Source: Amphiscolops sp. MND2022
Lineage: Eukaryota
Assembly (NCBI GenBank): GCA_964187785.1
Contig: OZ076409.1
Span: forward strand, 36,706,001-36,770,000
Direction: 5' to 3'
Length of the DNA: 64,000 nucleotides
Shown here: positions 21,870-59,372 of the stretch, one piece after another
Layout: each line of letters starts with the position of its first letter
Position numbering within the stretch: position 1 is the first letter of the stretch
Translations under genes and position numbers: made by a program
Notes under the pieces: model-generated
Seen by the model: the letters and a program-made list of their open reading frames with translations, nothing else
Databases searched by the model: none
Told to the model about the DNA's origin: nothing

Positions 21870-23373
21870 TGTCGCGCTATGACTAACGCTCTAACGAATC
21901 ACCAAAAGGCGCTTTCTATTATAAAAAATAACACGTGCAAAGAGAAACATAAAACTTGAACTAACGTTGTGTGGAGAGTGGAAAGTTGAAGTAAATATGG
22001 CGGCGGCCATAACGCGGCGGCCTCGAAGTGGAGTAATAAGTAATGGAATACTACGGGAAAGGAATTGCACTAGTGAAAATTTCTATTTCTTACCGCGGAT
22101 ATTTGAATTTTAAAGCTGAGCTACCATTGGTAGCATGCAACACATGCCGGCCAGGCACTTCAACAGCTGTGCTGAACTGTTTTTATACCGCGCGCACAGG
22201 CTGGAGATTCATTCATTCCCGCCGGACGGCTGAGCTCAACTTACAGCTCTCTCTCTCTCTCTCTCTTCAACTTATCAATTCCTCTACTTCTCTTACACTT
22301 ACTCTCCCCCTTCTCCCCCTCGACTCTTATTCTCCACTTTCTCTTTGCTTACATTGCACTTGTCTTATCTCAGACTTATAAAGTCAAACTTTCCTCCTTT
22401 TCTCCCTTTCCTCAAGCAAAAACTTATCTTTTCCTTTTCTCTATTCCCCAACAGAATTTTCTATCTTAGAAAATTCTCTTCAATTCAACTTGGTCTCCAG
22501 TTGGGTGAGTCGAAAATATCTTAGATTTTTTCTTTTAGAGGAGATTTTTTACTCTCCCTCCTTCTAACTGAACTCTATCTTAGAATAATTCCGCTGATTC
22601 AATTCTGCGGATTCTATCTTATAATAATTCCGCTGATTTAATTCTGCGGTTGTTAAAATTCTATCTTAGAATAATTCTGCTGATTTAATTCTGCGGTTTT
22701 CCCCTGTTAACTTATTTGTCTTTACCATTCCCATATTCAAAAAAAAAAAAGATGCTATTCCTAAAGTCTTAATGCTATTCCTAAAACAAAGGAGTAGAGA
22801 CTATAAAATTAAATAGTGTTGTCTAAGTTATTACAACACCAAAACTGGATTTTTCGTAAAAAAACTTTCTTCGAACTAAAGGAAATTACTATGAATTTCC
22901 TTCGATGCTAAATTTCTTCATCAATTTATGCTCTAAATTGAAATAGCTAAGATATTACTTCGGTTGCTGGCAAATAAATTTGGTGAGTTTGACTGAATAC
23001 TTGTAAACAGTTGAATAAAAACTGATATGTCTGAAGTTCAACTCTTTTATGTAATTCAACAAGTTTGCTAACATATGTTTTTTTTTCTATAGTTCAGAGA
23101 GCTCATTTACATTCACTGCCTTGCACTTACTCACGCAAGTTCCTTTGTTCGCACGTACACGCAAGGCACTTTCTTTTCGGTATTACAAAAAAGAAATTAA
23201 GTTATTGAGACTTTTCTACTTGTTCTACTTCAATAAAACAACAGTTGTTGGAAAAGCATTTTGCCAAATGTTGTAACAGCTGGGCTGACTAATACGGATA
23301 ACAAATTTGGAATTCCCCTCTAAAAGAGGAAACTGTAAAATAGCAGAACTGAAATTTATCCATGCGTGCGACA
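21870..23373 (+). repeat. 5' LTR (1504 bp)
   Basis: Near-identical to 38173-39677. Differences I saw are (CT)10 vs (CT)9, A12 vs A15, and one G/A at 22570. Contains three internal repeats of about 40 bp (22575-22700) and AATAAA at about 23232. Confidence 0.97.
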
Positions 23374-23376
23374 AAC

Positions 23377-23393
23377 TGGTGCGACCAGTGAGG
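23377..23393 (+). promoter_or_regulatory. Primer-binding site
   Basis: TGGTGCGACCAGTGAGG begins after a 3-nt spacer following the LTR and is complementary to a tRNA CCA end. The tRNA identity is not assigned. Confidence 0.8.
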
Positions 23394-24409
23394 CATCCTT
23401 TTTCTCTTACTATAGAGAAGTAAATGAGCAATCTGTTCGAATCCCTACTCTCAGAAGTTAGGGTTAACTACCTATTTCTCTTAATCTTACTTCTGATTTT
23501 CTTTTTTCTCCTACTGCCCCAATATGTGGCTTCTTTAGTCTATATAAATTACAGAACTGCTAGTAAATACTCTAATAGAATCTCTCCAGCTTAACAGCCG
23601 TTGGAAGAGACTGTGCTCTACCCAACTTAGTCCTCTCAATCCACAAAAAGGTTAGCGCTGATCTATTTTTACGGAAATGCTAGACTACATTCGGTCCTAA
23701 ACAAGAATGAAACTGCCCTCTAACACGGAATTTAAACTTACAGTTGGGAAGTTCACTCAAGTCCAGACGGACACACATTAAGTAAAAGCCCGCCTAGGTC
23801 TCCTCGGAGACTGGTTGAAGGCCGTGAGCCCAGTGGGTGTCCCGGAACCTGTGTAGCATTCCAAGTGGGAAACCTAGTATTCTAGTGATAGTACCCGAGT
23901 GTTTGCATGATAGTGATCTTGGCCCCGCGCACTTAATCCTGAGGACGAGAGTGACTCCCTCTGTTGGTTAGTTCTAGTACTACTTTTACAAAAGCCATTG
24001 AAAGGCTAGTCTAGCGAATTGAAGACCTATTGGACCGACTGTACTCTCCAATCTTTTAAGCTTAACTCGGAGGATTGGTATACTCCGAACTACCCTTTTT
24101 ACGGTAATCGTAACACAAGCGGGATTTGTAAGTATCCCCTAAAAATTTTGAAATTTCAGTAATAAATACTGGGAATGTGCCTATCCTGGGCTGAGATGCG
24201 CTAATTTCATTTTTACTAGCAGCGAATTACGGAGTATATGTTTTGTCAGACCTGCCTAATAATTATCACTGTTAGAATCATTGTACAAACAATTTTTACT
24301 TCCGCTCTTTGTAGTTACTCTCAAAAACCAGGAGTATCATACCTCACAGAGTCTTTGGCTTATTTTTCCTTACTTCATCTTCTATCTTTTATAACCTCAA
24401 TAGCTCACA

Positions 24410-25864
24410 ATGGCTGCGCAAAATTACTTGGCTTATCCAGACCTAGGCCGAGACCAATTCACAGGAACAGACCCAGATCAAGATCCTGAACAATTCATAC
24501 AGCTCATTGAAAAGAAGTTCCGGTTTTCTCACGGTGATACCCCGGCCAACGGACCAGCACTTGATGACTACAACTTCAGAAGAAAATCCTATTTTGCTAC
24601 ACTATTAAGAGGACCCGCAGCAGAGTGGTTCGAGACCAGCATCACAGACGCTAACACTTGGGCAGAAATCAGAGAGAGGTTCATAACGCGATTCGCAGAT
24701 GGCAGAAACAAATTTAGACACAGAATGGAAGCCGAACACGTCATCAGACGAGATGGAGAAGAAATAAAGAACTTCCTACACAGAATTAAAATAGTAGTCG
24801 GAAAAGGATGGCCAGATGATCTAGCCGGAGTCGCACAGAACAATAGAGACGCCGAAAGAGCAGCACAAGACAGACAAAGAAGACAGAGGTGCATTGACTA
24901 CTCACTGAGAGGCCTTCGACCCCCGAAACTGAGGGAAAAGGCACACGAATACTTAATGGATCATCCGAATGCAACCTGGGAGCAGTTCTCTCAAGCTGTA
25001 ATAAACAAAGACCTTTCTTACACAGTAACTACCTCTCTCACCGGTGGAGAATCACACGCAGACCCACTCATCCAAGAATTGCGAGAAGACATCAAAGGAA
25101 TCAAGCTACAAATCAAAGAACAGACGAACAACACTATCAATGCAATAGAGAAAACTGTTGATCCGAACGCAACAGGACGTAGAATGGCCACCAGGTTTTG
25201 CAGCTACTGCCGAACAAATGGGCATACGCCTAACTGGTGCAGAAAGAAGATGAGAGATGAAGAAATCAAGAAAGTTCAAAATGAATCCAACCCAGAGAGA
25301 CGAATAACTTTCACCAACGATTACAACAAAAGAACTGGACCTGGACATGGTTCTAGATTCCAAACTAGACTACCCGATTCAGAAATCAGAAAACATATGG
25401 CTGTGGCACATCAACTAGCACTTGCTGGAGCCATGCAGTCAAACCCTGCCCGGAACCAATATGATAGACCACAAAGAAGAAATTTCAACCCAGAACGCCG
25501 ACCTATGAATACAAGATTCAGTCCTGGTAACCAAAGATTTTCACAAGAAGGAAGAAGACCTTTTCTAAACAATTCTAACAATTCCAGAAGTGTTTCTCCT
25601 GGGCCCCAAAGAGCAAGATCTCCGTTCAGCTTCAACAGAGACCAGCCTAACTCCTTCAACCGCAACATACAGCCTCTTCCACCAAGGAATAACTCAGTCT
25701 TTAATAGACCACAAAACAGAAACGAAAGACCAAACACCCCCACTCAAACCTACGAACAAAGGTTCCCTAGAACTAACGACATGGGAAGACATAACACCGT
25801 ACAGTTTCTCGAAACAGATTACTCGGTGAACTCTGTCGCCGATATTCGCCCTTTAAACTATTAA
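24410..25864 (+). CDS. gag: Gag (484 aa)
   Basis: Capsid-like LRGPAAEWF...W.EIRERFITRF, a CCHC knuckle CSYCRTNGHTPNWC, and an R/N/P-rich C-terminus. Confidence 0.92.
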   Translation: MAAQNYLAYPDLGRDQFTGTDPDQDPEQFIQLIEKKFRFSHGDTPANGPALDDYNFRRKSYFATLLRGPAAEWFETSITDANTWAEIRERFITRFADGRNKFRHRMEAEHVIRRDGEEIKNFLHRIKIVVGKGWPDDLAGVAQNNRDAERAAQDRQRRQRCIDYSLRGLRPPKLREKAHEYLMDHPNATWEQFSQAVINKDLSYTVTTSLTGGESHADPLIQELREDIKGIKLQIKEQTNNTINAIEKTVDPNATGRRMATRFCSYCRTNGHTPNWCRKKMRDEEIKKVQNESNPERRITFTNDYNKRTGPGHGSRFQTRLPDSEIRKHMAVAHQLALAGAMQSNPARNQYDRPQRRNFNPERRPMNTRFSPGNQRFSQEGRRPFLNNSNNSRSVSPGPQRARSPFSFNRDQPNSFNRNIQPLPPRNNSVFNRPQNRNERPNTPTQTYEQRFPRTNDMGRHNTVQFLETDYSVNSVADIRPLNY

Positions 25865-28800
25865 GGTCTCCGAAAAACCGTAACAGCAGCACTGCCCCAC
25901 TAAAATTTAGTCTTAATCTTTATTATTTTGCTGCCGGAGACTCACAAAAAGATAGTGGCTTAGAAATCGAATTTCTACTAGACACTGGGGCAACATCTTC
26001 AATCATTAACTACAGGACCTTTAGAGAACTCTGTCAATTTCAACAAGACCTCGAACTCAGCAGAAGTAACAACACAACACGGAACTACTCTGGGCAGATC
26101 ATCCCTATGATGGGATACATCACCCTTAAACTCTACTACGATTCCGATGGACAACATAACTTCCCACTGACAGTCTGGATAACAGAGATGAAGACCCAAA
26201 ACCTCCTTGGAATGAACTTCTGTCAAGAACAAGTTAACAAAATACACTTTGATCTTCCTGGCATAGAACTCAAAAGACCTATAAATACTTTCTGCTATGG
26301 CAGTCTACAACTCAACAAATGTTACCCCTACGTATCACAAATACTCTCAGTCCGAATTCCTCACTCAATGTATATCGAACCAAAGACGACAAGATGTTAC
26401 AAATTTGCACCGGAAAACCCCAAGAACTCCTTTCCTCCCGGATCTACGTTCCTACCCAACAGAAAAGCAGTCTCTACAGGACTAAATTTTATAAATGTCC
26501 TTTGTACAAGATTTGAGAAGACTTTGCCAATCGTCATGGAAAATAACAAAAACCATACAATCACCCTAGTAAAAGGAACTATTGGATACTCTCTGCTCGA
26601 CGTATTAGACCAAGAAATTCCAAAATACCAAGTTAGAAACCCTACGGAACTCGCCTACGCTATCCTAAACGAAAACGAAGAATACAATGACTGTTTCCTG
26701 TTGCACTCCACCATCCCTTCACAAGATATGAACGATTGCATCAGAATAGAAGGAGGAAATTCTACTACAATCCTCAGCAGACCCGACTCCATCATGATCT
26801 TTGTCCCGGCAGATCTGAAGCCAGCCAAAGGCTTCTCGAAAGAAATCCTAACGAACATACCCTTGTTAAAAGAATCTTGCGCAAAACAGAAACCACTCAA
26901 AGGGGATACAATACCTTACTGGGACATGAATCTAAAACGATTCATATACGTCCTAATCACAAAAGCTAAATCAAAAGACAAAATCGACCCACAAATCTTA
27001 GTCCAAACGCTAGAGACTCTAAAAGCACACGCCAAAATGAATTGTATCAAGACCATTTCTATGTTACGAGAAGCGTCAGAACTAGAAGATTTCCAATGGC
27101 AAGATGTGACACAAATTATTCAAGATGTTTTTGCCTACTCGGAAATACAACTCCGAATTTATACAAGAAATGAACTAGACGTCTATGCTATGACTACGAG
27201 AGGAGACCCCGAATACGCGCTGGAAGACGAGATACAACAATTTTCCGAGCAATTTCACCTTAAACATAGAGAGCTGGAGACAGACTTTACGAGTGACGCA
27301 AAGTCTTGTCAACCACCCTGCGATGAGCAATTTAAAATCTTCAGGCAAAAAGAAGACAACGAAAGACTGATCGAGTATTACCTTCAGTACCAGAACAAAG
27401 AAGCAGTGCAATACATCAAAGAATTCGACTTTCGCTACTCAGACCTTACTGACGAGGAACTTGTGCTCCTAATAGACCAACTAATGGATGCGAGAGATGT
27501 ATACTCCCAACACAAATTCGACGTAGGAAAAACCAGACAGAAATTTAACATCAAACTCGAACCTGGAGCAATCCTGAAGAGACAGAGACCCAGCAAAGTA
27601 CCACTTCACCTAAGAGAAAAGTTAGAGAAGCTACTCACACAACTCAAAGACGCCGATATTATCAGAGAGATGGGCGATGACGACGAAATGGGATCCTTAT
27701 TCGTAAATCCTATTATACTACAACCAAAACACGACTATGTAAAACTGATCATAGACGCAAGATACCTAAATTCAGTGACGGATCTAACAAACTACTCCTG
27801 GCCCTTAGAACCGATCCAAACCATAATGACACTAATCAACGGGAACATCTTCTCAGTAAGTGATCTCTCCTGTGCATTTCACCAAGTCCCATTAGACGAG
27901 CCTACACAAAAACTTACAAGCTTCATCATAGGCGGGAAACAATACACCTTCACCAGAGGATTCTACGGACTTAAAGGGTTACCAAGCTTCTTTAGCCGAA
28001 TGATGACAATTCACTTCGAACCTCTCATTAAAAAGAAACAAGCAATCACCTACATAGACGACACGTTGATGCAAGCGAAAAGTAAACAAGAAATGTTCAC
28101 AGTGATTCAAGAATACCATAACCTACTACGGAAAGCGGGACTAAAAGCGGCACCTGACAAAACACTCTTCTTCTTGAGGAAAGTCAAGTTTTTGGGACAT
28201 GTGATTGCAGCAGAAGGAATACAACCCGTAGCTAAACGAGTAAGAGACCTACATAATCTCAAATCACCAAAAACCAAAACCGAAGTGAAAAGCTTCTTGG
28301 GAGCCTTAGGTTTCTACAGCTGCTACATCAAGAACCTTCACGTCGATAGTCGACCCTTTTACGAACTCACAAAAAAGGATACAAATTTCTGTTGGAACCA
28401 AGAACATGAAGACCTCTTCCAACAAATAAAGAAAAGAATCAGCGAAGACACAGTTCTTGCAGTACCTTCAACAAAATATCCCTTTCATATACACGTCGAC
28501 TCTTCCAACGTAGGGACAGGATGTATCCTCATACAACAATTTCCAGAAGGGAAACGGATCATTTCTTTCAATTCCAGAGTCTTCGCAAAAGAAGAACAAA
28601 AAATGTCTACTCTACATAGAGAACTATGTGGAATAGTCTCAGCATTACAAACCTACGAACACTATATCATTGGATCTCCCTTTCCAATTTACTTATATTG
28701 TGACCACAAACCAATTCTTTATCTCTGGGGACGAAAAGGACAAGTTTCACCGCGTTTCTTCAGGTACCAAGTAATAATCTCTAAATTCCCAAATCTCAAG

Positions 28801-31359
28801 ATAATTTGGACCCCAGGAAGCAATTTAGCCTTCCCTGATATACTCAGCAGAAACGTATCGATAGAAGAACACAAAAAACATCAACTCAGTCACAAAATCC
28901 TACCGAACGATATTCACTTCTTCGACGAGCATGGAACCCAAATACACTACAAAATAAAACACGAAGAAAACGAAGAAACGTCAAAAAACGATTTCTACCC
29001 CATCCTGTACGAAAAAGGAGATGAACGAAAAATTCTTCAACTACAAAACGATGGAAATAACTTCACAGTTAACAATATCTACGAGGAACCTAACCTGCCG
29101 AAAATAGAGTCAGCACAGAGTTGTCTCGACGCTGGAAGAGAACTAGGAAAATTTTCAGATCTAAAAATCAGATCCGGGACAAGGGATAGCACTTCCGATT
29201 CGTCTCAGAATACTTACAGCTCCATCAATAGCGATGCAGATGATGAAGCCTGCACAGACAACCAAAGTCATGAAGTAAACGAGACCAACTACGAGCTCAA
29301 CACTGAAGATCTCACCGCACGTAACACAGGTATTCCCGAAAATGCAAAGGCAATAGAACACCTCAGTCTACCTACAAATTCAACGGAAAAACACAAGACC
29401 CCAGCCCGAGAGCTCGTCAGTCAACTCGACAAAATATCAAAAGAAGTGGATCTAGACGTCACAACAATCTTACAAGAACAGATCAATGACCCGGTGCTCA
29501 GTGTGGTTCGACGATGGATACAAACCGGAAACAGGCCTACGCCAAAATCACCAGAATTACAACACTCTAAAGGACTCATGCGCTATTCCCAAGAGTTTGA
29601 TAGATTGACCATAGAAGAAAACGGAAACCTACTGTGCTACAATGAACCTACAGATAAGACGGAAGAAGAAAATCTTCGAATATGCTTACCACTCTCCTTA
29701 TTTCTCGCCTGCTTCCGATTAGGACACTACAACGACCTCGGAGGCCATATGGGAGCCGAGAAAACCTACCTAAATGCTAAAAGATTCTACTACTGGCCCG
29801 GGATGCACGACTGGATTTGTGCCCTCACACAAGATTGCGTTAGCTGCCAATCTAACAAATCCAAACAAAGAAGAAATTACGAAGTCCCACTGGAGGACTG
29901 TGAAACCGAGACCCAAGTATTCAGAACTGTTCATATCGATCACAAGGGACCACTCAACCCTCCCAGTCGTGGAAATTCACATTGCCTCCTCATCATCGAC
30001 GCATTTTCACGCTACTTGATGGCATACCCAGTTAGAGACACAGGTGCACAGTCAACAATCAACGCTATGGAAAAATGGATTATGCACTATGGGATACCGC
30101 AGTCTATCATACACGATAGAGGAACGGCTTTCGTAAACACTGAATTCGTCAATTGGACTAAAGAGTTAGGCATCACTCTCCGGCCAAGAACTGCACACTC
30201 ACCCTGGACTAACGGAAAAGTGGAAACCCAAAACCAACACATTGCAAGGTACTGGAGAAACTTCTTAAACGACTCAGGAAACAACTGGGCCCAACTAGCT
30301 GCTAAATTCGCATTTGCCCACAACACAAGCGTCAACTATACCACTGGAAAGACACCATACGAAATAGTCTTCTGCAATAAACCACAGATACCTATGAGTC
30401 TTAAGTTGGGTCTATACCGTAATAAAAACAAGAATTGCAGATCACAGTTCTGCAACGGACTGCCTCCTCACTGCCACAGCGAAAACCAAGTCAAAAACGA
30501 ACTGCTGAATGGACTATTAAGACCTCAACTATCTCAAAACCTGCTTGAAAGAGAGACCGCCTTCAAGAAAATCTATTCGTCCACTTACGAAAAATGCAGA
30601 AAACAAACAGCTAGATCTCATGCCTACAGAAACAGATTTAAACTAGGCAGCCATCTCAACATCGGACAAAAGGTCTTGTTAGAAAACCATCGGAAAGACC
30701 TCTCCAAAAGTCAAAAACTTCAACAACTGCGATTAGGACCATTTACAGTTACCAAGAGAATCACCAACACAACATACCAAATAAAAAACGATCAAAACCC
30801 CGAAAATCTCCGAACAGTCCATAGAAATCATTTAATAGAATACTTTCCCAAAGAGGAAACACTCCCCCCTCTTATAGAAGAATACACAACTCCCTACCGT
30901 GGAGACACGGATTTCTATAACAATTTTGTCAAAGGAAGAATAGAACGACTTAATGTTTCAGAACCACAGATACTCGGGGATCTCTGCATTTTACCAGTCC
31001 GAAACCAACAAAGACAGACCACCGCACAAAAACGAGTGAGAACTCCCCAGAGCACCGACTCTGGTATTATTTCCCCAGAAAATCACCGGTTGGGAACACC
31101 AACAACTCCGGATCAGCCTACTACATCCCGTCCTCCTGGTTCAACTACTCCTATCCAAACACTGACGCAACAAATAACACCCGAACCCTTGACTACCACA
31201 CCGGCTACTTCGACCAAATCTTTGACACCCCTACAAGAACTCAGGCGAGCGGTTGCAAGTCACGTCGAAAGAAATCCCCGCTATCAGCGAGCACAACCCA
31301 ACCAACCAGCACCACTGTCCATCCTTCGGCAAAAAACTCGCGTAGGCTACAAAGCCTAA
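25852..31359 (+). CDS. pol: Pol (protease, macrodomain, RT, RNase H, integrase), translated by -1 frameshift from gag
   Basis: The -1 frame is open from the slippery site T TTA AAC (25852). LLDTGA has D at 25981, upstream of the ORF-track ATG. Also YIDD (28051), RNase H HVDSS...CDHKP, integrase H-H-C-C, D-D-E and a GPF motif. Confidence 0.95.
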   Translation, partial: FKLLRSPKNRNSSTAPLKFSLNLYYFAAGDSQKDSGLEIEFLLDTGATSSIINYRTFRELCQFQQDLELSRSNNTTRNYSGQIIPMMGYITLKLYYDSDGQHNFPLTVWITEMKTQNLLGMNFCQEQVNKIHFDLPGIELKRPINTFCYGSLQLNKCYPYVSQILSVRIPHSMYIEPKTTRCYKFAPENPKNSFPPGSTFLPNRKAVSTGLNFINVLCTRFEKTLPIVMENNKNHTITLVKGTIGYSLLDVLDQEIPKYQVRNPTELAYAILNENEEYNDCFLLHSTIPSQDMNDCIRIEGGNSTTILSRPDSIMIFVPADLKPAKGFSKEILTNIPLLKESCAKQKPLKGDTIPYWDMNLKRFIYVLITKAKSKDKIDPQILVQTLETLKAHAKMNCIKTISMLREASELEDFQWQDVTQIIQDVFAYSEIQLRIYTRNELDVYAMTTRGDPEYALEDEIQQFSEQFHLKHRELETDFTSDAKSCQPPCDEQFKIFRQKEDNERLIEYYLQYQNKEAVQYIKEFDFRYSDLTDEELVLLIDQLMDARDVYSQHKFDVGKTRQKFNIKLEPGAILKRQRPSKVPLHLREKLEKLLTQLKDADIIREMGDDDEMGSLFVNPIILQPKHDYVKLIIDARYLNSVTDLTNYSWPLEPIQTIMTLINGNIFSVSDLSCAFHQVPLDEPTQKLTSFIIGGKQYTFTRGFYGLKGLPSFFSRMMTIHFEPLIKKKQAITYIDDTLMQAKSKQEMFTVIQEYHNLLRKAGLKAAPDKTLFFLRKVKFLGHVIAAEGIQPVAKRVRDLHNLKSPKTKTEVKSFLGALGFYSCYIKNLHVDSRPFYELTKKDTNFCWNQEHEDLFQQIKKRISEDTVLAVPSTKYPFHIHVDSSNVGTGCILIQQFPEGKRIISFNSRVFAKEEQKMSTLHRELCGIVSALQTYEHYIIGSPFPIYLYCDHKPILYLWGRKGQVSPRFFRYQVIISKFPNLKIIWTPGSNLAFPDILSRNVSIEEHKKHQLSHKILPNDIHFFDEHGTQIHYKIKHEENEETSKNDFYPILYEKGDERKILQLQNDGNNFTVNNIYEEPNLPKIESAQSCLDAGRELGKFSDLKIRSGTRDSTSDSSQNTYSSINSDADDEACTDNQSHEVNETNYELNTEDLTARNTGIPENAKAIEHLSLPTNSTEKHKTPARELVSQLDKISKEVDLDVTTILQEQINDPVLSVVRRWIQTGNRPTPKSPELQHSKGLMRYSQEFDRLTIEENGNLLCYNEPTDKTEEENLRICLPLSLFLACFRLGHYNDLGGHMGAEKTYLNAKRFYYWPGMHDWICALTQDCVSCQSNKSKQRRNYEVPLEDCETETQVFRTVHIDHKGPLNPPSRGNSHCLLIIDAFSRYLMAYPVRDTGAQSTINAMEKWIMHYGIPQSIIHDRGTAFVNTEFVNWTKELGITLRPRTAHSPWTNGKVETQNQHIARYWRNFLNDSGNNWAQLAAKFAFAHNTSVNYTTGKTPYEIVFCNKPQIPMSLKLGLYRNKNKNCRSQFCNGLPPHCHSENQVKNELLNGLLRPQLSQNLLERETAFKKIYSSTYEKCRKQTARSHAYRNRFKLGSHLNIGQKVLLENHRKDLSKSQKLQQLRLGPFTVTKRITNTTYQIKNDQNPENLRTVHRNHLIEYFPKEETLPPLIEEYTTPYRGDTDFYNNFVKGRIERLNVSEPQILGDLCILPVRNQQRQTTAQKRVRTPQSTDSGIISPENHRLGTPTTPDQPTTSRPPGSTTPIQTLTQQITPEPLTTTPATSTKSLTPLQELRRAVASHVERNPRYQRAQPNQPAPLSILRQKTRVGYKA

Positions 31360-31367
31360 TCTACATC

Positions 31368-31754
31368 ATGCCTTGTCATAAAGTTTACCTAAATTTATCA
31401 TGGCAAGTTCCACGAGAACTCCAATCCTTAAACGTTCTACACGTTACAATCACAAAAATCTACTGGACCTACACAAACAAACTAATTAGAATTTGCTTCT
31501 ACTCCAACGACCCAGACCCGAGCCCCCACAAACAACCTACGCCCAGAAAATCAAATCTTCATGTTCACCCAGAATCCAAAACGTTTGCTCAACTATATCA
31601 GCACCTAGCCTACCATGCAGTCAACCATCACGACCCTATCCTAGAAGAACTCTTATCCTACATGCCTACCCTAATTCCTGACCTACAACCTTCCTCACAC
31701 AATACTCAAAAGGACCTATTCTGCTGCTCGACTATCTCCTCACCTAGCTCCTAG
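31368..31754 (+). CDS. Accessory ORF A (128 aa), unknown function
   Basis: ATG lies 8 nt after the pol stop. Shares a residue pattern with ORFs B-D. Confidence 0.6.
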   Translation: MPCHKVYLNLSWQVPRELQSLNVLHVTITKIYWTYTNKLIRICFYSNDPDPSPHKQPTPRKSNLHVHPESKTFAQLYQHLAYHAVNHHDPILEELLSYMPTLIPDLQPSSHNTQKDLFCCSTISSPSS

Positions 31755-31916
31755 CCGGCACATTTAACCTATTAGCGATGTATTACCTTTAATATATTCT
31801 ACTTCCGTTTATCGATATTATTTGTGCAATCCCGAACATGACTTACGAAAAGCCACAAGCACAGAAGCGTATAAAAATAGTAGAGAATTTTCCTGGAGAT
31901 GAGAGGCGACTTGCGC

Positions 31917-32561
31917 CTACTCAATCTCCAGAAAACCGCCTTTCTCCGCTAGCCGCCTCAACTGGGAAGCCCGCTCCTCTCTGGTCCATAACTGGTACAG
32001 CCTCACCCACTGCCCCCTCTCGAAGCTGGTCAACTGGCAGAACCCATCTATATAGGCCCTCAGTTGACACAGCACTAATTCCCCTAGAGGGGACAGGAGG
32101 GTTCCCTCCCAACGGGCTCCCAGGTTGGCCCTCAAGAAACTCACAAAGGCATTTGGGATGGGCGCCCCAGATAAGGCAAACCCGGGAGACCCCCGCATGG
32201 AACGGGACAAAGAGGCCCAATTCTCTAACCGGTCCACGTCCCTCCGGTTAAAGAGGCTGAGAAAACTCTGCTCTCCGGGGTTCTCTAAAACCCCTTGAGC
32301 CACTACTGTGGAGGCCTGCAGGACTGGCCTGGGGGCCACAGCAGCAACAGGCGCAGAAGAGGAGGACGGCCCAGCCGCCAACAAAGAAGGCCCAGCCAAC
32401 GACAAAGAAGGCCCAGCGGCCGACGAAGGGCCCACAGACGACGAGGGAGCAGACGACGAGGGAGCAGACGACGAGGGAGCAGACGACGAAGCAGCAGACG
32501 CAACTGTTTCCTCATCGGTCGATGATTCCTCGTAGTAGTCAGACTCGTTGTTGTTACTCAT
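31917..32561 (-). CDS. Antisense accessory ORF (214 aa), acidic and Ser/Ala/Pro-rich N-terminus
   Basis: ATG-initiated. A TATA-like TTATAAAA lies about 65 nt upstream and ATTAAA about 125 nt downstream on the minus strand. It is a GC-rich island inside an A-rich element. Confidence 0.55.
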   Translation of the reverse strand: MSNNNESDYYEESSTDEETVASAASSSAPSSSAPSSSAPSSSVGPSSAAGPSLSLAGPSLLAAGPSSSSAPVAAVAPRPVLQASTVVAQGVLENPGEQSFLSLFNRRDVDRLENWASLSRSMRGSPGFALSGAPIPNAFVSFLRANLGARWEGTLLSPLGELVLCQLRAYIDGFCQLTSFERGQWVRLYQLWTREERASQLRRLAEKGGFLEIE

Positions 32562-32849
32562 TCTGAAGATATCTTAGCTTTTTTTGTCCTAAAGTAATGC
32601 ATGCTTAAACAAATATTTATCTCTTATTTTATAACAATATCTTATGGTTATTTGCCTAAACCGCCTACGATAATCCTACAATAGATAGAATATATCTTTT
32701 GAAACTTCTCTGTACTCAACCACGATCTTCTACGAGATCGTGTTTATACTTTTCAAACACCTCTGTCCTCCAACGCAATGAAATAACTGATGATTACATT
32801 CTCAGATTTGCCATGTTTGAACAACAGTGAACACTGAAGTATCTCACAG

Positions 32850-33071
32850 ATGATCATAATCTTCAAAATCGACAACCGTCTTTCACAAATCACAGATATC
32901 CAGAAGGAACCCTCAACGCAGAACATTATCGTACAAGCATACGCAATAGCAGAAGAAGAAAGTGAAACCTACACTTGTGTGCCAGCATCACCTATCTACC
33001 CTCTACTGGAGAGCTTGCTATATAACAACACCCCTACTGAAGTCGTCACAAGAGCCAAGTCAGTCATTTAA
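32850..33071 (+). CDS. Accessory ORF B (73 aa)
   Basis: Its stop overlaps the next start (TAATG). Pattern is similar to ORFs A, C and D. Confidence 0.5.
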   Translation: MIIIFKIDNRLSQITDIQKEPSTQNIIVQAYAIAEEESETYTCVPASPIYPLLESLLYNNTPTEVVTRAKSVI

Positions 33072-33466
33072 TGTCCTCTCCCGCAGTCGCCGTGTTCCGC
33101 GGAAATAATTACTACTTCCACACACAGTTTCAACCTCCTGTTCCTTGGACTCCCATACAACTCAAGGGCCAATACGAAATACAGTCAATCTTCTACGAGA
33201 TCACAACCTCTGCGATTCAAGTGCGTATACTCACACCAGAAGACAAAGAAGCTCTAGTCCTCTTCCCTATTCACTTCGGATCCAAGGAATACGCCTACTT
33301 ATTCCTTTCGTTCAAGCAATACATCCTCCAACACCCCGCAGTTCTCAAAGACAAGGCTTTCGACGACTTGGTTTATTTTATGGACATCACTCTCACCTCC
33401 AACCCCTTCGAAGAAGAAGTTAGAATCAAATACCTTCACAGCCTAGTCGACACTTATGATGTTTAA
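33071..33466 (+). CDS. Accessory ORF C (131 aa)
   Basis: Start is coupled to ORF B by TAATG; overlaps ORF D by 11 nt. Confidence 0.62.
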   Translation: MSSPAVAVFRGNNYYFHTQFQPPVPWTPIQLKGQYEIQSIFYEITTSAIQVRILTPEDKEALVLFPIHFGSKEYAYLFLSFKQYILQHPAVLKDKAFDDLVYFMDITLTSNPFEEEVRIKYLHSLVDTYDV

Positions 33467-33800
33467 GATTCAACTCAAGTTTCTCTGGCGCCACCCTGAA
33501 ACAAATACACTTCTCGAAATTCTCTCTATCGCTTGGAAAGAAAACGCACCTTCACTACAAATCGAACTCCATAGCCTCCGACCACAAAACCCAGGACATT
33601 GGCTCATCCCAGTTGACACCAACTCCCAAGAGGCTACTGATCTCTCACTCGCACTAAAGGAATATAGGCAAATTGCCTATCTCGACCACATCCACCCTCT
33701 AACACTGTTCCTCCTCAACAAGCTCATTGACTTCCTCGAATTGAGAAGACGAAACAAAACCTCTCCCAGTCTACAATCAATCCGTGACAACTACAATTGA
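33456..33800 (+). CDS. Accessory ORF D (114 aa)
   Basis: ATG overlaps the end of ORF C; paralog-like pattern. Confidence 0.62.
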   Translation: MMFKIQLKFLWRHPETNTLLEILSIAWKENAPSLQIELHSLRPQNPGHWLIPVDTNSQEATDLSLALKEYRQIAYLDHIHPLTLFLLNKLIDFLELRRRNKTSPSLQSIRDNYN

Positions 33801-33845
33801 ACTTTCAGCAATGGTTGAAGTTAGTCTCTTTTAACTTCCTATTTT

Positions 33846-34300
33846 GGCACTTTTTAACAGTAGTGAGGTTACTACTATAAAATTTTAACCTCCGCTTAGT
33901 GCTAGTGCCCACTAAGCTGCCGGTTTGATATTACGGCTTGCCTTTTTACGGCCTTATAACGGATCCTCAATAATAAAATATACTAAAGCTTCAATAATTA
34001 ACCTACTCTTCGGCACTTTTTTAACAGTAGTGAGGTTACTACTATAAAATTTTAACCTCCGCTTAGTGCTAGTGCCCACTAAGCTGTCGGTTTGATATTA
34101 CGACTTGCCTTTTTACGGCCTTACTACGAATCCTCCTCTCTGGAACACACACCTATTTCCCTGAAATAATAAAATACTTATCGTTCCCCTCGGCACGTTT
34201 TAACAGTAGTGAGGTTACTACTATAAAATTTTAACCTCCGCTTAGTGTTGTGCCAGCTAAGCTGCCGGTTTGATATTACGGCTTGCCTCTTTACGGTCTC
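33846..34300 (+). repeat. Three tandem copies of a structured element of about 110 nt upstream of env
   Basis: Copies start at 33846, 34012 and 34192. Stems are conserved, with a compensatory base change in copy 2. Confidence 0.9.
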
Positions 34301-34377
34301 TACTAAACACTTAAACTGATTCTTTAACAGGGAGCGATTACACGGTTGATTCAAAAACAGACTGAAGAATTTCAACA

Positions 34378-36525
34378 ATGAAATTATTTTTCTTACTCTT
34401 CTTATGCGCCAATTTCGCGCCCGTTGTGAACTCACAACGTTCAACGCCAAACCTCGCTAGCGTTGCTAAAAAATTGCGAGTAACTCATTTCGACTGCGGC
34501 GAAATGACACAAAATAAGCTCTACGCCTTGAATCAAGTAGAGCAATGCAATGTGGCCCCGGAAAACTTAGAAGTAAGTCGTGCTAGCGTGACGTTATACA
34601 CTAAACACTTTCGTCGCACTATCAACGCTACTATGTGCCGTGTGAAACACCAGAGTGAAGAATGGCATTGTGGTCATAATGACCACTCCAGTATGTCAAT
34701 CCTACACAACGGAATCACCAGCGATATTTCCTTGTCACCCGAAACCTGTAAGGCCATGGGCGAAGGCAAAGAAGTCATGATCCATGGACAACCCCTCAAA
34801 TTTAAGAAAGGAGTCAAACAAGTACAGACGAGAAACGCCAAATACGGAAAAAGTTGGGATGGAGTACGTGACCCTGATACCCGTAATGAGTGCAAGACAG
34901 GCGGATGGATTAAACGCGAAACCTTCGAATCTCATATCCAAGACGTCGAATTATCAGTCAAAACCAGAGACGGGAAAATCCTCACACCCTTCCAGATGGT
35001 TCTCCCCTGCCCCCTGGAACAACTCGGCTGCGAAACCACGTCATTGGACCCGTACGCCTATACATGGGCAGAGCCAGATAACTGCGTGCTCGCAGTCCAC
35101 AGAAAAGAAATAGTGAATATGATCAAACATGGCTCTAACTACTATATAGTTAGCGGCAACGACTCCACTACCAAGTTCCTATTCGAAATATACAACAGGC
35201 CACAGAAATACTGCAACAAACCCGATGATGTCTACCCTACCAATTACGAATCCCTCTACGTTTCGACCCAATTTGGTGGCTTCGACATGACTTCTGGCAG
35301 ACGACTCGGCATCTCCATGGGAGAAACCTCCAAACTTCAATATTACTCACCCAACGATGGTTCTGGTAATGGCAGACTCCACCTCTTCAGAGGCCCCAGC
35401 GACTCCAACCCCAACACACCACATTATCTCAACATGGATTACGAACTCCACCAAGGAACCAAGTTAGATTATCTCTTCTTTGAGAGCACCCGCTTACTCG
35501 AAGCTTCAGAGATCCAGCTATTGAAAGCTCAATGTGAGCAAGAACGAACACAAATCCTTACCATCCTGATGTTATCCATGGAAAACCCACGACTCGCCGG
35601 ATACATGCTCACGGGAAATCGCTCGATGTTCCTGAACACAGATGGTAGCCTCGCATGGCTCTACCACTGCCCGGAATCCCACTCACCTCTTCACACGATG
35701 AACCAATGCTACGACCGCATACCAATCTTCTACAAGGGAGTGGTCGCCTTTGTAGACCCCATAACCCGACAAACATATCCTAACGCGAACGTACAAAACT
35801 GCACAGATCGTATTAAGAACCTCTTCCAACTGGACATGGAAGACAAGGACTCCTGGTTCACCCTTACACCTTCACCCGAACATCGGGACCGGCCTGCTAT
35901 CTTCGGACCCAAAGACATCCAGCCAATGATTACCAGATCTTTCCCAGGATCACAGGACGCGGGAATGTACACTCCCAAGCAACTCTCCGAGTTTTGGGAC
36001 AACATCCTCATCAGCGCCGCATCACGTAATGCCCTCCAGAAGTTCTCAAGAGAGCTCATCATACCCTCCATGGCCCACAGCGGACCAGAATCCTTCGCGT
36101 ATTACGCACCTCGTACAGATTTCTATGTCGACGGAATGATTTCACCCGACTACTTTAAAAATCAGTTCCTCGAAACATTCGGAAGTATATCTTATGTACT
36201 AGAACTCTGCGGAGCGTACTTTGGCGCTTTCCTTTTTATCAAGTTCGTCATAGATATCACGGTACTAGTCTTCCGCTACTTCGAACTTCGTCACCTTACA
36301 GGTAACACACTGAGCTTCACTAAAACCTTGCTCAGTGCTTCGTACAACCTTTTCTTTACCTCTGTTTTAACTTCCGTATTTACCCCGCGGGCCCCTTTCG
36401 AGGATAGCATTGAAGACAAAAGGGTAAAAACAGAAGACGAAGAAAAAGGAGTAGAACTCCAAATCCTAAAACAAAAAGAGGAATCACTATATCCCTCGGT
36501 ACAGAGCTTTGTTGCTCCAATATGA
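34378..36525 (+). CDS. env: Envelope glycoprotein (715 aa), chuvirus-G/herpes-gB-like class III fusogen candidate
   Basis: Signal peptide and a Cys-rich ectodomain (HFDC, C-x8-HCG, CEQER...P..A..L, CYDRIPI...FVDPITR). N-glycosylation sequons are present, with a C-terminal TM at about 36196-36273. Confidence 0.85.
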   Translation: MKLFFLLFLCANFAPVVNSQRSTPNLASVAKKLRVTHFDCGEMTQNKLYALNQVEQCNVAPENLEVSRASVTLYTKHFRRTINATMCRVKHQSEEWHCGHNDHSSMSILHNGITSDISLSPETCKAMGEGKEVMIHGQPLKFKKGVKQVQTRNAKYGKSWDGVRDPDTRNECKTGGWIKRETFESHIQDVELSVKTRDGKILTPFQMVLPCPLEQLGCETTSLDPYAYTWAEPDNCVLAVHRKEIVNMIKHGSNYYIVSGNDSTTKFLFEIYNRPQKYCNKPDDVYPTNYESLYVSTQFGGFDMTSGRRLGISMGETSKLQYYSPNDGSGNGRLHLFRGPSDSNPNTPHYLNMDYELHQGTKLDYLFFESTRLLEASEIQLLKAQCEQERTQILTILMLSMENPRLAGYMLTGNRSMFLNTDGSLAWLYHCPESHSPLHTMNQCYDRIPIFYKGVVAFVDPITRQTYPNANVQNCTDRIKNLFQLDMEDKDSWFTLTPSPEHRDRPAIFGPKDIQPMITRSFPGSQDAGMYTPKQLSEFWDNILISAASRNALQKFSRELIIPSMAHSGPESFAYYAPRTDFYVDGMISPDYFKNQFLETFGSISYVLELCGAYFGAFLFIKFVIDITVLVFRYFELRHLTGNTLSFTKTLLSASYNLFFTSVLTSVFTPRAPFEDSIEDKRVKTEDEEKGVELQILKQKEESLYPSVQSFVAPI

Positions 36526-36556
36526 ATTATTATCTCATTTCGTAGTTTACGTTTAG

Positions 36557-37159
36557 AATTTAGAACCCTTATTCGACCTCCCAAACCTGGACGACGACAT
36601 CCCTAACTCTATCTTAGAAGACGACTTGCAGATAGAACCCTTATCACCTTCTGACCTGCTGTCACCTGCTTCTCCCACAACTATTACCTTTCTCCTAGAT
36701 CCCCCAGACTCAACAGTTCCTTCTCCGATTCCAAGCGCCCTAACAACAACACCCTCTCCAACGACATCACTACAACTCCCCTTTCCGCTGTCATTTACAG
36801 AAGAGGTAGCGCCTATCCCATCAACTCAACATCCACCTCGATCGCCCCAACATCCACCCCGCTTCGGCGGAAAAGACATAAGACGGGCACTACCCAGGAA
36901 ACACCAACAACAATGGAATGACAAAATAACAGATGACACGCCACTGAAGAAACAACACAAGCGGGAGTACTTCACTAAACGAGCAAGACACGTTAAGAAG
37001 CCCAGATTCAACACAGAGTTGAAATACACTCTCCTCCCACAATTCTCAACTTGGAAAATCGTTTTCTGGGATAACAAGAGACAAGAGTACACCATAGAGA
37101 ACCCAGCCCTAAAGGGACAAAGACTAACGGTCCCCCTAAGAGCCATCTCAGCACAATGA
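36557..37159 (+). CDS. Pro/Ser/Thr-rich ORF with basic C-terminal half, no ATG (possibly spliced)
   Basis: The frame is open from 36557, right after tttacgtttag (acceptor-like). Its stop overlaps the TRAF ORF start (ATGA). Confidence 0.45.
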   Translation, partial: NLEPLFDLPNLDDDIPNSILEDDLQIEPLSPSDLLSPASPTTITFLLDPPDSTVPSPIPSALTTTPSPTTSLQLPFPLSFTEEVAPIPSTQHPPRSPQHPPRFGGKDIRRALPRKHQQQWNDKITDDTPLKKQHKREYFTKRARHVKKPRFNTELKYTLLPQFSTWKIVFWDNKRQEYTIENPALKGQRLTVPLRAISAQ

Positions 37160-38058
37160 ATCGGAGGCTAAACCCAGACGCTATCCCCTTCATCCCAAAA
37201 AGCACTCCTTCCTTCCCCAAAGCTAACGACTGGCCACCTCTATCCAGGACAGAGAATAAAGATGACCTCGAGACACTCGAGGGAATCAAAAGATTGAACA
37301 AATGGATCGCTGAACTGGAAGTCTCAACTAGCCCACAAAGTGAAAAGGTAACCCCGATCCTAAGGAAATCGTTTCCCATAACCGACATAAAACAGCCTAG
37401 AACAAAGTTTGCTAGTGAAATGAAACAACTCCAAAACTTGGCAGAAGAAACGCGGACTAAATGTAATCACTTGGAACTCACAATATCCAATCTACAAGCG
37501 ACAATCAAGTTTCAAGGCGCCCTACTCAACAAAACCAACGTATTAGACGCAAGAAGTGGTGAACCCATCCTTTGGCACATACCCGCTTTTTCCACACTAT
37601 ACAGAAAAGCAAAGACCTCCCCGAATGATGCGTTGAACAACATCAAAAATAGCTTCACTAGCCCTATCTACACTACCCACCTAACCGGCTGCAAAATATC
37701 CCTCAGACTATTCCCTTATGGCGCCAACATCTTCCGCGGAACCCATTCCTCAATTTCTTGTGATCTACACCCCAGCGACTTCACTCTCCCACGAACGTGG
37801 CCTTTCGAGCAACAATTGATCGTCTCAATCATAGACCAAAAAGACAAGAACAACAAATGGTCCATCTCCTTTCCCTATCCCTCCAAAACAGAAGAGTATG
37901 AAGACCCGCACAAGAACGACTACACACTCCCAGGACTGATGAGAGAAGACTTCATCGCGCACACAAAACTCCTGGTAAACTTTAGAGAAGCCTTCCTAAA
38001 CAATGACTCCGTCATAATCCAAATTCAATTTGACAGACCCCTTTTTTCTAAACCCTAG
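37156..38058 (+). CDS. PAM2 - coiled coil - TRAF/MATH domain protein (300 aa)
   Basis: LNPDAIPFIP (PAM2), a heptad segment, then ILWHI...SPIYT...GCKISLRLFPYG...GTH.S...WPF.Q.....IIDQ...FL.NDSVIIQI, matching the TRAF-C consensus. No RING or zinc fingers. Confidence 0.88.
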   Translation: MNRRLNPDAIPFIPKSTPSFPKANDWPPLSRTENKDDLETLEGIKRLNKWIAELEVSTSPQSEKVTPILRKSFPITDIKQPRTKFASEMKQLQNLAEETRTKCNHLELTISNLQATIKFQGALLNKTNVLDARSGEPILWHIPAFSTLYRKAKTSPNDALNNIKNSFTSPIYTTHLTGCKISLRLFPYGANIFRGTHSSISCDLHPSDFTLPRTWPFEQQLIVSIIDQKDKNNKWSISFPYPSKTEEYEDPHKNDYTLPGLMREDFIAHTKLLVNFREAFLNNDSVIIQIQFDRPLFSKP

Positions 38059-38160
38059 TGCTAAAACATGTCCCCCTTCCCTCATGCTCTTTCACCTAAT
38101 ACCTCTTTCTTGACCTGACCCCAAATTTCTCTAGTAAAGTTGTTGCTTTTTCACCCTGCC

Positions 38161-38172
38161 AGGGGGGTGAGC
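38161..38172 (+). promoter_or_regulatory. Polypurine tract
   Basis: AGGGGGGTGAGC lies immediately before the 3' LTR. Confidence 0.75.
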
Positions 38173-39677
38173 TGTCGCGCTATGACTAACGCTCTAACGA
38201 ATCACCAAAAGGCGCTTTCTATTATAAAAAATAACACGTGCAAAGAGAAACATAAAACTTGAACTAACGTTGTGTGGAGAGTGGAAAGTTGAAGTAAATA
38301 TGGCGGCGGCCATAACGCGGCGGCCTCGAAGTGGAGTAATAAGTAATGGAATACTACGGGAAAGGAATTGCACTAGTGAAAATTTCTATTTCTTACCGCG
38401 GATATTTGAATTTTAAAGCTGAGCTACCATTGGTAGCATGCAACACATGCCGGCCAGGCACTTCAACAGCTGTGCTGAACTGTTTTTATACCGCGCGCAC
38501 AGGCTGGAGATTCATTCATTCCCGCCGGACGGCTGAGCTCAACTTACAGCTCTCTCTCTCTCTCTCTTCAACTTATCAATTCCTCTACTTCTCTTACACT
38601 TACTCTCCCCCTTCTCCCCCTCGACTCTTATTCTCCACTTTCTCTTTGCTTACATTGCACTTGTCTTATCTCAGACTTATAAAGTCAAACTTTCCTCCTT
38701 TTCTCCCTTTCCTCAAGCAAAAACTTATCTTTTCCTTTTCTCTATTCCCCAACAGAATTTTCTATCTTAGAAAATTCTCTTCAATTCAACTTGGTCTCCA
38801 GTTGGGTGAGTCGAAAATATCTTAGATTTTTTCTTTTAGAGGAGATTTTTTACTCTCCCTCCTTCTAACTAAACTCTATCTTAGAATAATTCCGCTGATT
38901 CAATTCTGCGGATTCTATCTTATAATAATTCCGCTGATTTAATTCTGCGGTTGTTAAAATTCTATCTTAGAATAATTCTGCTGATTTAATTCTGCGGTTT
39001 TCCCCTGTTAACTTATTTGTCTTTACCATTCCCATATTCAAAAAAAAAAAAAAAGATGCTATTCCTAAAGTCTTAATGCTATTCCTAAAACAAAGGAGTA
39101 GAGACTATAAAATTAAATAGTGTTGTCTAAGTTATTACAACACCAAAACTGGATTTTTCGTAAAAAAACTTTCTTCGAACTAAAGGAAATTACTATGAAT
39201 TTCCTTCGATGCTAAATTTCTTCATCAATTTATGCTCTAAATTGAAATAGCTAAGATATTACTTCGGTTGCTGGCAAATAAATTTGGTGAGTTTGACTGA
39301 ATACTTGTAAACAGTTGAATAAAAACTGATATGTCTGAAGTTCAACTCTTTTATGTAATTCAACAAGTTTGCTAACATATGTTTTTTTTTCTATAGTTCA
39401 GAGAGCTCATTTACATTCACTGCCTTGCACTTACTCACGCAAGTTCCTTTGTTCGCACGTACACGCAAGGCACTTTCTTTTCGGTATTACAAAAAAGAAA
39501 TTAAGTTATTGAGACTTTTCTACTTGTTCTACTTCAATAAAACAACAGTTGTTGGAAAAGCATTTTGCCAAATGTTGTAACAGCTGGGCTGACTAATACG
39601 GATAACAAATTTGGAATTCCCCTCTAAAAGAGGAAACTGTAAAATAGCAGAACTGAAATTTATCCATGCGTGCGACA
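38173..39677 (+). repeat. 3' LTR (1505 bp)
   Basis: Direct repeat of 21870-23373, followed by the TSD CAAT. Confidence 0.97.
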
Positions 39678-42022: not shown

Positions 42023-42254
42023 CAGTTTAACTTCAGTATTACACACCTCGTTGGGAGAAAACGCTCAAGTACGTTACCGTTTAACTTCAGTATTACACAC
42101 CTCGTTGGGAGAAAACGCTCAAGTACGTTATTCTGAAGTGTGTGTTATAAGCGAAAAAGACCAAATGATGAAAACCAAACACGGGGGCACAAAATATGTG
42201 CGTTATTCTGAAGGTTACACTATAGTGCACGTGTGTGATACTGAAGTTAAACTG
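42023..42254. mobile_element. Tc1/mariner-type MITE
   Basis: TIR of about 24 bp, CAGTTTAACTTCAGTAT(T/C)ACACAC, with TA on both sides and an internal tandem duplication of about 54 bp. Confidence 0.85.
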
Positions 42255-42272
42255 TATCAAACTTGTAAGTAC

Positions 42273-42634
42273 CTTCAGCTTCGAATTATGTTTGAAATAC
42301 GATGACTTTAATATCTTCAAATTGTTATCTGAGAAATCGAGGTACTGCAAATCCTTCAGGTAGCCCAAGTTAGGAAACGTTGTTAAAGAGTTTCCAGCTA
42401 GGTTCAGGATTTCAATGGCTCTGTTCATCTTGAAGATCTCGAAGGGGATTCCTAGCATGAAATTGTTGCTAAGATCAAGTTTCTGAATATCAGTGTTCGT
42501 TTCCAGGGATTCTTCGTGGATAACCAGGTTGGCCATTTTCACCACATTTTCCAGGTACAAATACCTTAAACTGGGAAACCCCCCGAAGAAGTTTGGACCA
42601 ATCACATTGATTGGGTTTCCACTCATGTCTAACA
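42273..42634 (-). CDS. LRR-Ig-FN3 receptor gene, LRR exon
   Basis: Repeated LxxLxLxxN motifs (LDMSGN, LDLSNN, LNLAGN, LDFSDN), with AG/GT ends. Confidence 0.9.
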
Positions 42635-42834
42635 CTGAAACAAACTTTCGATTATAAACAAGAGCTCATTATTCCATTCATAATTGCTTTTTTTCTAGCG
42701 TTTGTCGAAGTATTTTAACTTTTTCAAACTATGGAGTCTCAGCTGCGGTTACAATATGGAATATTTGAAAACAAAATAGCCTGAAACTCACAGCTTTTCT
42801 TTTTAGTTATGTTTTCTCGGCCAATCTACTGTTT

Positions 42835-59172: not shown

Positions 59173-59372
59173 NNNNNNNNNNNNNNNNNNNNNNNNNNNN
59201 NNNNNNNNNNNNNNNNNNNNNNNNNNNNNNNNNNNNNNNNNNNNNNNNNNNNNNNNNNNNNNNNNNNNNNNNNNNNNNNNNNNNNNNNNNNNNNNNNNNN
59301 NNNNNNNNNNNNNNNNNNNNNNNNNNNNNNNNNNNNNNNNNNNNNNNNNNNNNNNNNNNNNNNNNNNNNNNN
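59173..59372. other. Assembly gap (200 N)
   Basis: Run of N. Confidence 1.

Follow-up and report, generated by a model that had tools for sequence, protein, structure and literature searches.

Architecture of the Element

The window, by which we mean the entire 64,000-nucleotide stretch of DNA analyzed here, contains a complete LTR element of 17.8 kb on the forward strand (21870–39677) that follows the Ty3/Gypsy order (table 1). Its LTRs agree in 1501 of 1502 aligned bases (with two small indels), and CAAT on both flanks constitutes a 4-bp target-site duplication; the near-identity of the LTRs, their TG...CA ends, and the flanking CAAT together indicate a young insertion. A search for tRNA genes within the 64-kb window returned none. 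The pol ORF lies in the −1 frame relative to gag and would be made by frameshifting at the TTTAAAC heptamer; it encodes, in order, a protease, a dUTPase-like domain, a macrodomain, RT, RNase H, and integrase, and the motifs of its PR-RT-RH-IN core look intact.

Table 1. Positions of the Element's Features in the Window.
Feature	Position	Strand	Remarks
5' LTR	21870..23373	+	1504 nt, TG...CA ends, CAAT directly upstream
Primer-binding-site-like stretch	23377..23393	+	TGG start, 3 nt past LTR; read from sequence
gag ORF	24410..25864	+	Retrotrans_gag E 1e-4, under Pfam cut-off
pol ORF	25795..31359	+	1854 codons, zero internal stops
Slippery-type heptamer TTTAAAC	25852..25858	+	Just ahead of gag stop
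Protease motif LDTGA	25978..25992	+	Within pol
dUTPase-fold beta domain	26329..26646	+	Between protease and macrodomain; fold match modest, without sequence match
TARG1/OARD1-like macrodomain	26737..27165	+	Pol aa 315–457, in frame; predicted ADP-ribose-blind
Altered ligand loop 1 region	26797..26835	+	H32I, C33F, S35P, M40P, G41A; D37, G43 kept
Lys equivalent to TARG1 catalytic Lys84	26962..26964	+	Kept
Altered diphosphate-binding loop REASELE	27067..27087	+	I120E, G121A, C122S, G123E, D125E
RT motif YIDD	28051..28062	+	Within pol
env-like ORF, Monjiviricetes fusion glycoprotein family	34366..36525	+	PF24664 E 3e-31
Accessory ORF, TRAF-type MATH domain	37075..38058	+	MATH_2 E 1e-11; just before 3' LTR
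3' LTR	38173..39677	+	1505 nt, then CAAT

Downstream of pol, the env-like protein has no relatives by sequence among solved structures, and the accessory MATH-domain ORF is a possible host-signaling decoy. Four further ORFs lie inside the element (31917–32561 on the reverse strand and 33071–33466, 33456–33800, and 36557–37159 on the forward strand), one of which is antisense and Ser/Ala-rich; a Pfam scan of two of the four returned no family above the cut-off. Three repeats with a spacing of 167–179 nt (33831–34299) directly precede the env-like ORF and possibly form an internal regulatory region.

The RT of the element matches Gypsy-type proteins (its named matches share 25–33% identity, and the corresponding tree is one without named references in which long branches meet), unlike that of Anakin, which is a BEL/Pao element. 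The likeness to Anakin, an LTR element whose envelope derives from a chuvirus (PMC12440569), lies in the Monjiviricetes-type glycoprotein ORF. Ty3/Gypsy elements are recognized by LTRs with TG...CA ends, a target duplication of 4–6 bp, and the order PR-RT-RH-IN (PMC12440569), and the window element displays all of these Metaviridae-type features. We rejected membership in Troyka, whose LTR retrotransposons are described as having CG...CG ends, a 3-bp duplication, and no envelope (PMC12440569), on the grounds of the TG...CA ends, the 4-bp duplication, and the env-like ORF.

A TARG1-Class Macrodomain within Pol

A preliminary description, drawn from the DNA letters without database searches, had placed a TARG1/OARD1-like macrodomain between protease and RT. 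This placement holds, with the qualification that a dUTPase-like domain also intervenes, and translation from position 26737 reproduces the peptide on which it was based; the possibility of a wrong reading frame was rejected, as the peptide lies in the stop-free Pol frame. In a sequence-only phmmer search of all PDB chains, the domain matched five TARG1/C6orf130 sequences with E-values of 4–5e-10, leading us to reject chance resemblance, and the sole other match was unrelated (E 1.1). The alignment pairs SMLREASELE with the corresponding ten residues of TARG1 and ITK with ITK, in keeping with the earlier claim that the catalytic Lys is retained. Pfam by itself does not recognize the domain, as a scan of the region returned zero families.

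The preliminary description would have given way had no macrodomain fold been predicted; the AlphaFold model of the domain is a confident one (pLDDT 90.3, pTM 0.86), and TARG1 is its top match both in Foldseek (E 3e-12) and in VIA-align (residues 12–152, Z 21.1, rmsd 1.6 Å over 140 residues). The next structural matches, DarG, SCO6735, and Poa1p, lie well behind TARG1 at Z 15–18, and feature matches in the Atlas reach 0.92 to Macro/OARD1 clusters. Since the 68-row alignment supplied to AlphaFold consists mostly of intact TARG1-like sequences, it is the phmmer match that constitutes independent evidence. A larger, 391-residue model has a pTM of 0.50 and low-confidence linkers, and hence domain packing is not read from it. 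By fold and descent, the window domain belongs to the macrodomain superfamily and to its TARG1/OARD1 class.

The upstream neighbor is probably a pseudo-dUTPase, as judged from modest fold matches to the dUTPases of EBV (Z 8.9, rmsd 3.4, 85 aligned) and EIAV (Z 8.8, rmsd 7.1, 97 aligned); it has no sequence match in Pfam or the PDB, and an Atlas search with it returned unnamed clusters only. The window Pol would bear two captured enzyme folds in tandem, and macrodomain-less relatives also carry the dUTPase-like domain.

State of the ADP-Ribose Pocket

We numbered residues after TARG1 from the PDB alignments, consistent with G43, I44, and G123 as given in PMC5928194 and with K84 and D125 as given in PMC9411070. 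The window domain resembles human TARG1/OARD1/C6orf130 (PDB 4J5R, 4J5S, 2LGR) in its whole-domain fold (24–25% identity), in its basic predicted pI (~9), and in keeping D37, G43, Lys84, and W129, together with T83, K90, and L124. The basic pI is common to the intact relatives and is therefore not a new feature. Unlike human TARG1, the domain is fused inside a retrotransposon Pol and carries substitutions in both ligand loops (table 1) as well as P91I and P118L. The GDLF start motif of TARG1 is replaced and is likewise absent from the intact sister domains described below.

The preliminary description had read the Gly-rich IGCGLD loop as a degenerate EASELE, and our alignment confirms this reading. 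Of the features that mark an active TARG1, only Lys84 is fully present: Asp125 is a conservative Glu (codon 27085–27087), the Gly loop has A at 121 and E at 123 (codon 27079–27081), both in 24 of 24 listed copies of the lineage, and the loop 1 motif H32-C33-x-S35 reads I-F-x-P, with G43 kept. We take S35 to be a functional position of loop 1. Given the state of the Gly loop and of Asp125, the domain should not be classed as an active TARG1.

The proposed catalytic pair of TARG1 is K84 and D125 (PMC9411070), and the engineered substitutions G43E, I44E, and G123E each abolish both stabilization by ADP-ribose and catalytic activity (PMC5928194). The G123E protein is more stable than wild type, and RNA binding persists in both G123E and G43E (PMC5928194). 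The window domain is closer to the G123E mutant than to wild-type TARG1, and this correspondence suggests that its pocket is blocked. It is thus probably an ADP-ribose-blind pseudo-enzyme, one that would neither bind nor hydrolyze ADP-ribose.

These substitutions bear directly on the first of two functions that the preliminary description had suggested, an anti-PARP module, which in the window element would bind or remove host ADP-ribose marks on element proteins or cDNA. Viral macrodomains do counter ADP-ribosylation (PMC7729036), TARG1-like domains recur in Gypsy-type Pol at three positions, and the window domain keeps G43 and D37; yet G123E by itself blocks binding in TARG1 (PMC5928194), and the window domain adds G121A, S35P, H32I, C33F, and M40P. 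We therefore regard the anti-PARP reading as very unlikely for this copy, and it could apply, on present sequences, only to sister families with intact motifs. Of the second suggestion, a repurposed pseudo-enzyme packaged with Pol, the altered loops and G123E favor the pseudo-enzyme part and the domain does lie in frame within Pol; repurposing and packaging enter only as conditional steps of the explanation given below.

Sister Families and the History of the Domain

Relatives were gathered by an RT search (an earlier word-based search recovered 2 of 93 candidates and none of the intact sisters). Among the 114 long Pol proteins recovered, nine carry the macrodomain, in every case between the dUTPase-like domain and RT. 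The distance from the protease motif to the RT motif is 691 residues in the three measurable macrodomain-bearing proteins and 509–524 in four that lack it; two others without the domain, P0203 and P0211, have ~90 extra residues in this interval (601 and 615). In an RT–RNase H tree of 41 rows, the macrodomain-bearing proteins form one clade (96/98) beside macrodomain-less relatives, which fits a single gain of the domain, and the window's own lineage is nested beside the intact P0196, P0198, P0199, and P0201 (98/99).

The own lineage comprises three clusters with 146 members, of which 32 were listed, 25 with a domain match and 24 covering loop 2. These copies share 83–100% identity in the domain, and all 24 read REASELE and keep K84, leading us to reject the decay of a single copy. 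The loop comparison among sister elements that the preliminary description had called for is clear-cut: across three sister families (15 listed of 617, 498, and 415 members, respectively, with 13, 5, and 7 matches), G121, G123, L124, and D125 are kept in 25 of 25 listed copies, and H32, C33, and S35 in all 23 that cover loop 1. The intact sister domains are likely active, judging by these motifs, although not certainly so because the GDLF start motif is absent there too. Single-protein scans for sister copies gave 30 pattern matches in metagenome contigs and five in viral contigs, none of them confirmed.

Parts of the altered loops are found beyond the own lineage. The fragment P0033, 45% identical over the domain, has I32, F33, P35, P40, L118, and E125 in common with the window, and carries D123 together with E43, the latter at another site where Glu inactivates TARG1 (PMC5928194); P0049 has D123 and E125. 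By analogy with the TARG1 mutants, E123 in the window and D123 with E43 in P0033, all at positions of the TARG1-inactivating type, support the pseudo-enzyme assignment. Because they are fixed among copies and partly common to P0033 and P0049, the loop changes reflect the history of a lineage. We also built a quick domain tree from 124 rows and 144 columns, having removed 53 of the initial 187 rows because of low coverage and another 10 because they were duplicates; 59 of its 121 branches are open. The macrodomains lying between protease and RT group at 97 in this tree, and the window lineage joins P0033 at 100, their long stem measuring 0.55. The same tree did not support our tentative label of P0140.

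Two further families are altered. In the P0200 family, G121 is E (6 of 6), H32 is F (7 of 7), and G43 is absent (7 of 7), with Lys84 kept; this family groups with the intact P0202 in the RT–RNase H tree (98/89), and on the evidence of these sequences its loop change is a second, independent event. The P0208 family is more mildly changed (G121A and C33T, with H32, S35, G43, and K84 kept), and its domain may be active.

The persistence of Lys84 invites a different reading, namely that the domain is an enzyme with a changed substrate, in which Lys84 and Glu125 act on a diphosphate-free substrate or on a differently bound ADP-ribose. Indeed, K84 is kept in all listed own-lineage copies, in P0033, and in both other altered families, position 125 remains acidic, and the ALC1/TARG1 class tolerates catalytic change: DarG, without the Asp, and SCO6735, without both catalytic residues, are nonetheless active (PMC9411070, PMC5087735), and both, like Poa1p, are more distant from the window domain than TARG1 and active with other catalytic sets. 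However, SCO6735 has the glycine-rich loop RIGCGLAGG (PMC5087735), whereas the window domain has an acidic residue at 123 and Pro in place of S35. K84 lies in a strand motif and may be structural, and the 18 of 35 family-wide conserved positions that the window domain keeps are mostly in the core. On balance, we consider a changed substrate improbable.

Selection and Possible Role of the Domain

Six pairs of own-lineage proteins differ by 9–17% in the domain, by 2–5% in RT, and by 18–45% in the RH-IN linker. Divided by the distance in the flanks, the domain distance gives ratios of 1.4–3.3 in these pairs versus 0.86–1.71 in 11 pairs of intact versions, with overlapping ranges; judged from these protein distances, the domain is still under constraint, though less so than intact versions, as the ratio is raised and yet the domain diverges more slowly than the linker. 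An alignment of 12 distinct own-lineage sequences has 47 variable columns out of 144, and the longest invariant run, of 10 residues, is the rebuilt loop (p 0.038 for eight given columns under random placement, a value that is only suggestive because the copies are related and partly recombinant). One copy pair has such a recombinant look, being 99% identical in the tail and 55% in the linker. The stretches around K84 and K90 are invariant too. Loop 1 differs from copy to copy, and variable columns are as frequent in the hydrophobic core (15 of 47) as elsewhere (32 of 97).

We favor, with a probability of roughly 0.45, the explanation that the domain is a pseudo-TARG1 that is made with Gag-Pol and retained as a noncatalytic binding module acting through its basic surface. 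An ancestor of the element clade acquired a TARG1-type macrodomain between the dUTPase-like domain and RT, and most sister families have retained its ligand and catalytic motifs. The own lineage has retained the fold and Lys84 and rebuilt both ligand loops. Acidic residues would now occupy the site of the ADP-ribose diphosphate, and for this reason neither binding nor removal of ADP-ribose would be expected. Produced within Gag-Pol by −1 frameshifting, the domain would enter the particle with Pol. The weakest step is the last, in which the domain would serve as a noncatalytic binder, most likely of nucleic acid or of some other polyprotein segment, by way of the basic surface surrounding the former pocket.

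In favor of this explanation are the loss of ADP-ribose binding but not of RNA binding in TARG1 G123E (PMC5928194), the fixed REASELE loop next to sister families with intact loops, the nesting of the lineage beside such families, the constraint that remains on the domain, the invariant rebuilt loop together with the K84 and K90 stretches, and the pI of ~9. Several observations speak against it. Lys84 and an acidic residue 125 are retained in all altered families, the core columns are no less variable than the rest while loop 1 is variable, P0033 and P0049 have loops unlike that of the window and unlike one another's, and the domain-to-flank ratio above that of the intact families fits relaxed selection, albeit with overlapping ranges. 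Relaxed selection would be expected if the domain were a functionless passenger that persists because Pol is one chain, in which misfolding is harmful and clean in-frame loss rare; in a variant of this alternative, the activity might come in trans from intact sister families that share the host. P0045, an own-lineage fragment, and P0354, from an intact family, lie on contigs of equal length (812,877 nt), which hints at one common assembly. The faster divergence compared with intact versions and the long stem branch of 0.55 in the domain tree are as this alternative would have it, and further points in its favor are that the adjoining dUTPase-fold domain is likewise kept without a recognizable enzyme signature, that the element, at 17.8 kb, tolerates much cargo, and that insect-restricted alphaviruses are reported to have lost macrodomain catalytic residues (PMC7729036). 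The passenger alternative nevertheless sits poorly with the finding that copies vary least in the surface stretches near the former pocket, with the presence of L118, an acidic residue 123, and E125 also in P0033, whose domain is 45% identical, and with the full domain length kept in both altered lineages though relatives do without the domain. We judge it somewhat unlikely, and were it correct, the window domain would be an ordinary case of cargo decay.

A broader and doubtful scenario places the binding module within a sequence of events: an env-bearing Gypsy clade would have captured a TARG1-type hydrolase directed against host ADP-ribose on the element's proteins or cDNA, after which at least two lineages would have closed the pocket by acquiring acidic residues and made a new binding module of the domain. 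If this were true, LTR retrotransposons of an invertebrate-type host would be subject to ADP-ribosylation, and the change from enzyme to pseudo-enzyme would have occurred repeatedly inside Pol.

Relation to Known Systems

Our survey of the literature on macrodomains in retroelements, which covered sources other than subscription journals, Repbase reports, and supplements, found no TARG1-like domain in a Gypsy Pol, and the arrangement of the window Pol is not described in the accessible portions of 10.1101/2021.11.30.470311, PMC8120803, and PMC12440569. The same macrodomain class does occur in other Gypsy-type Pol proteins in our data: among 23 that we scanned, four have a TARG1-like domain after RNase H or before integrase (P0148, P0169, P0181, and P0095) and one after integrase (P0162). 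All five lie outside the clade of protease-to-RT domains in the domain tree; P0095 reads AGCGVD at the ligand loop, and the other four keep IGCGLD.

A macrodomain in a retroelement has a precedent in fish epsilon-like endogenous retroviruses, which carry macro-domain ORFs (Basta et al. 2009, per the review PMC4977317). As that one review describes them, these are additional ORFs in Retroviridae, unlike the in-frame Pol domain and Ty3/Gypsy order of the window element. Viral genomes also hold TARG1-like homologues, few of which are reported to have all essential residues (PMC4245714), and the window domain resembles degenerate viral macrodomains in being kept in a viral polyprotein after the loss of catalytic residues (PMC7729036, PMC4245714). 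As those sources present them, these are RNA and DNA viruses, with the alphavirus domains of the MacroD class, whereas here the domain is of the TARG1 class, resides in an LTR element, and exists in parallel in intact and in altered families. A precedent thus exists for each ingredient; what is new is the occurrence of absent, intact, and twice-altered states side by side.

The clade accordingly offers natural comparators, in which the domain is absent, intact, or independently altered in otherwise similar Pol proteins. These bear on whether ADP-ribosylation restricts LTR retrotransposons, and could show both the target of the intact domain and the remaining use of a pocket-blocked TARG1 fold; the window domain is also a naturally occurring parallel to the engineered G123E and G43E mutants.

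Surroundings of the Element

The surroundings of the element are repeat-rich and, taken with its cargo, suggest that the host is an invertebrate animal. A second, unrelated element of Gypsy order lies at 10233–16049 on the forward strand, with 209-nt LTRs that are 99% identical and a 5-bp duplication; a frame change together with a stop interrupts its pol. On the reverse strand, we recognized by eye what is presumably a Tc1/mariner-like transposase fragment (6525–6995) and what we take to be a leucine-rich-repeat fragment (42093–42665). An assembly gap of 200 N occupies 59173–59372.
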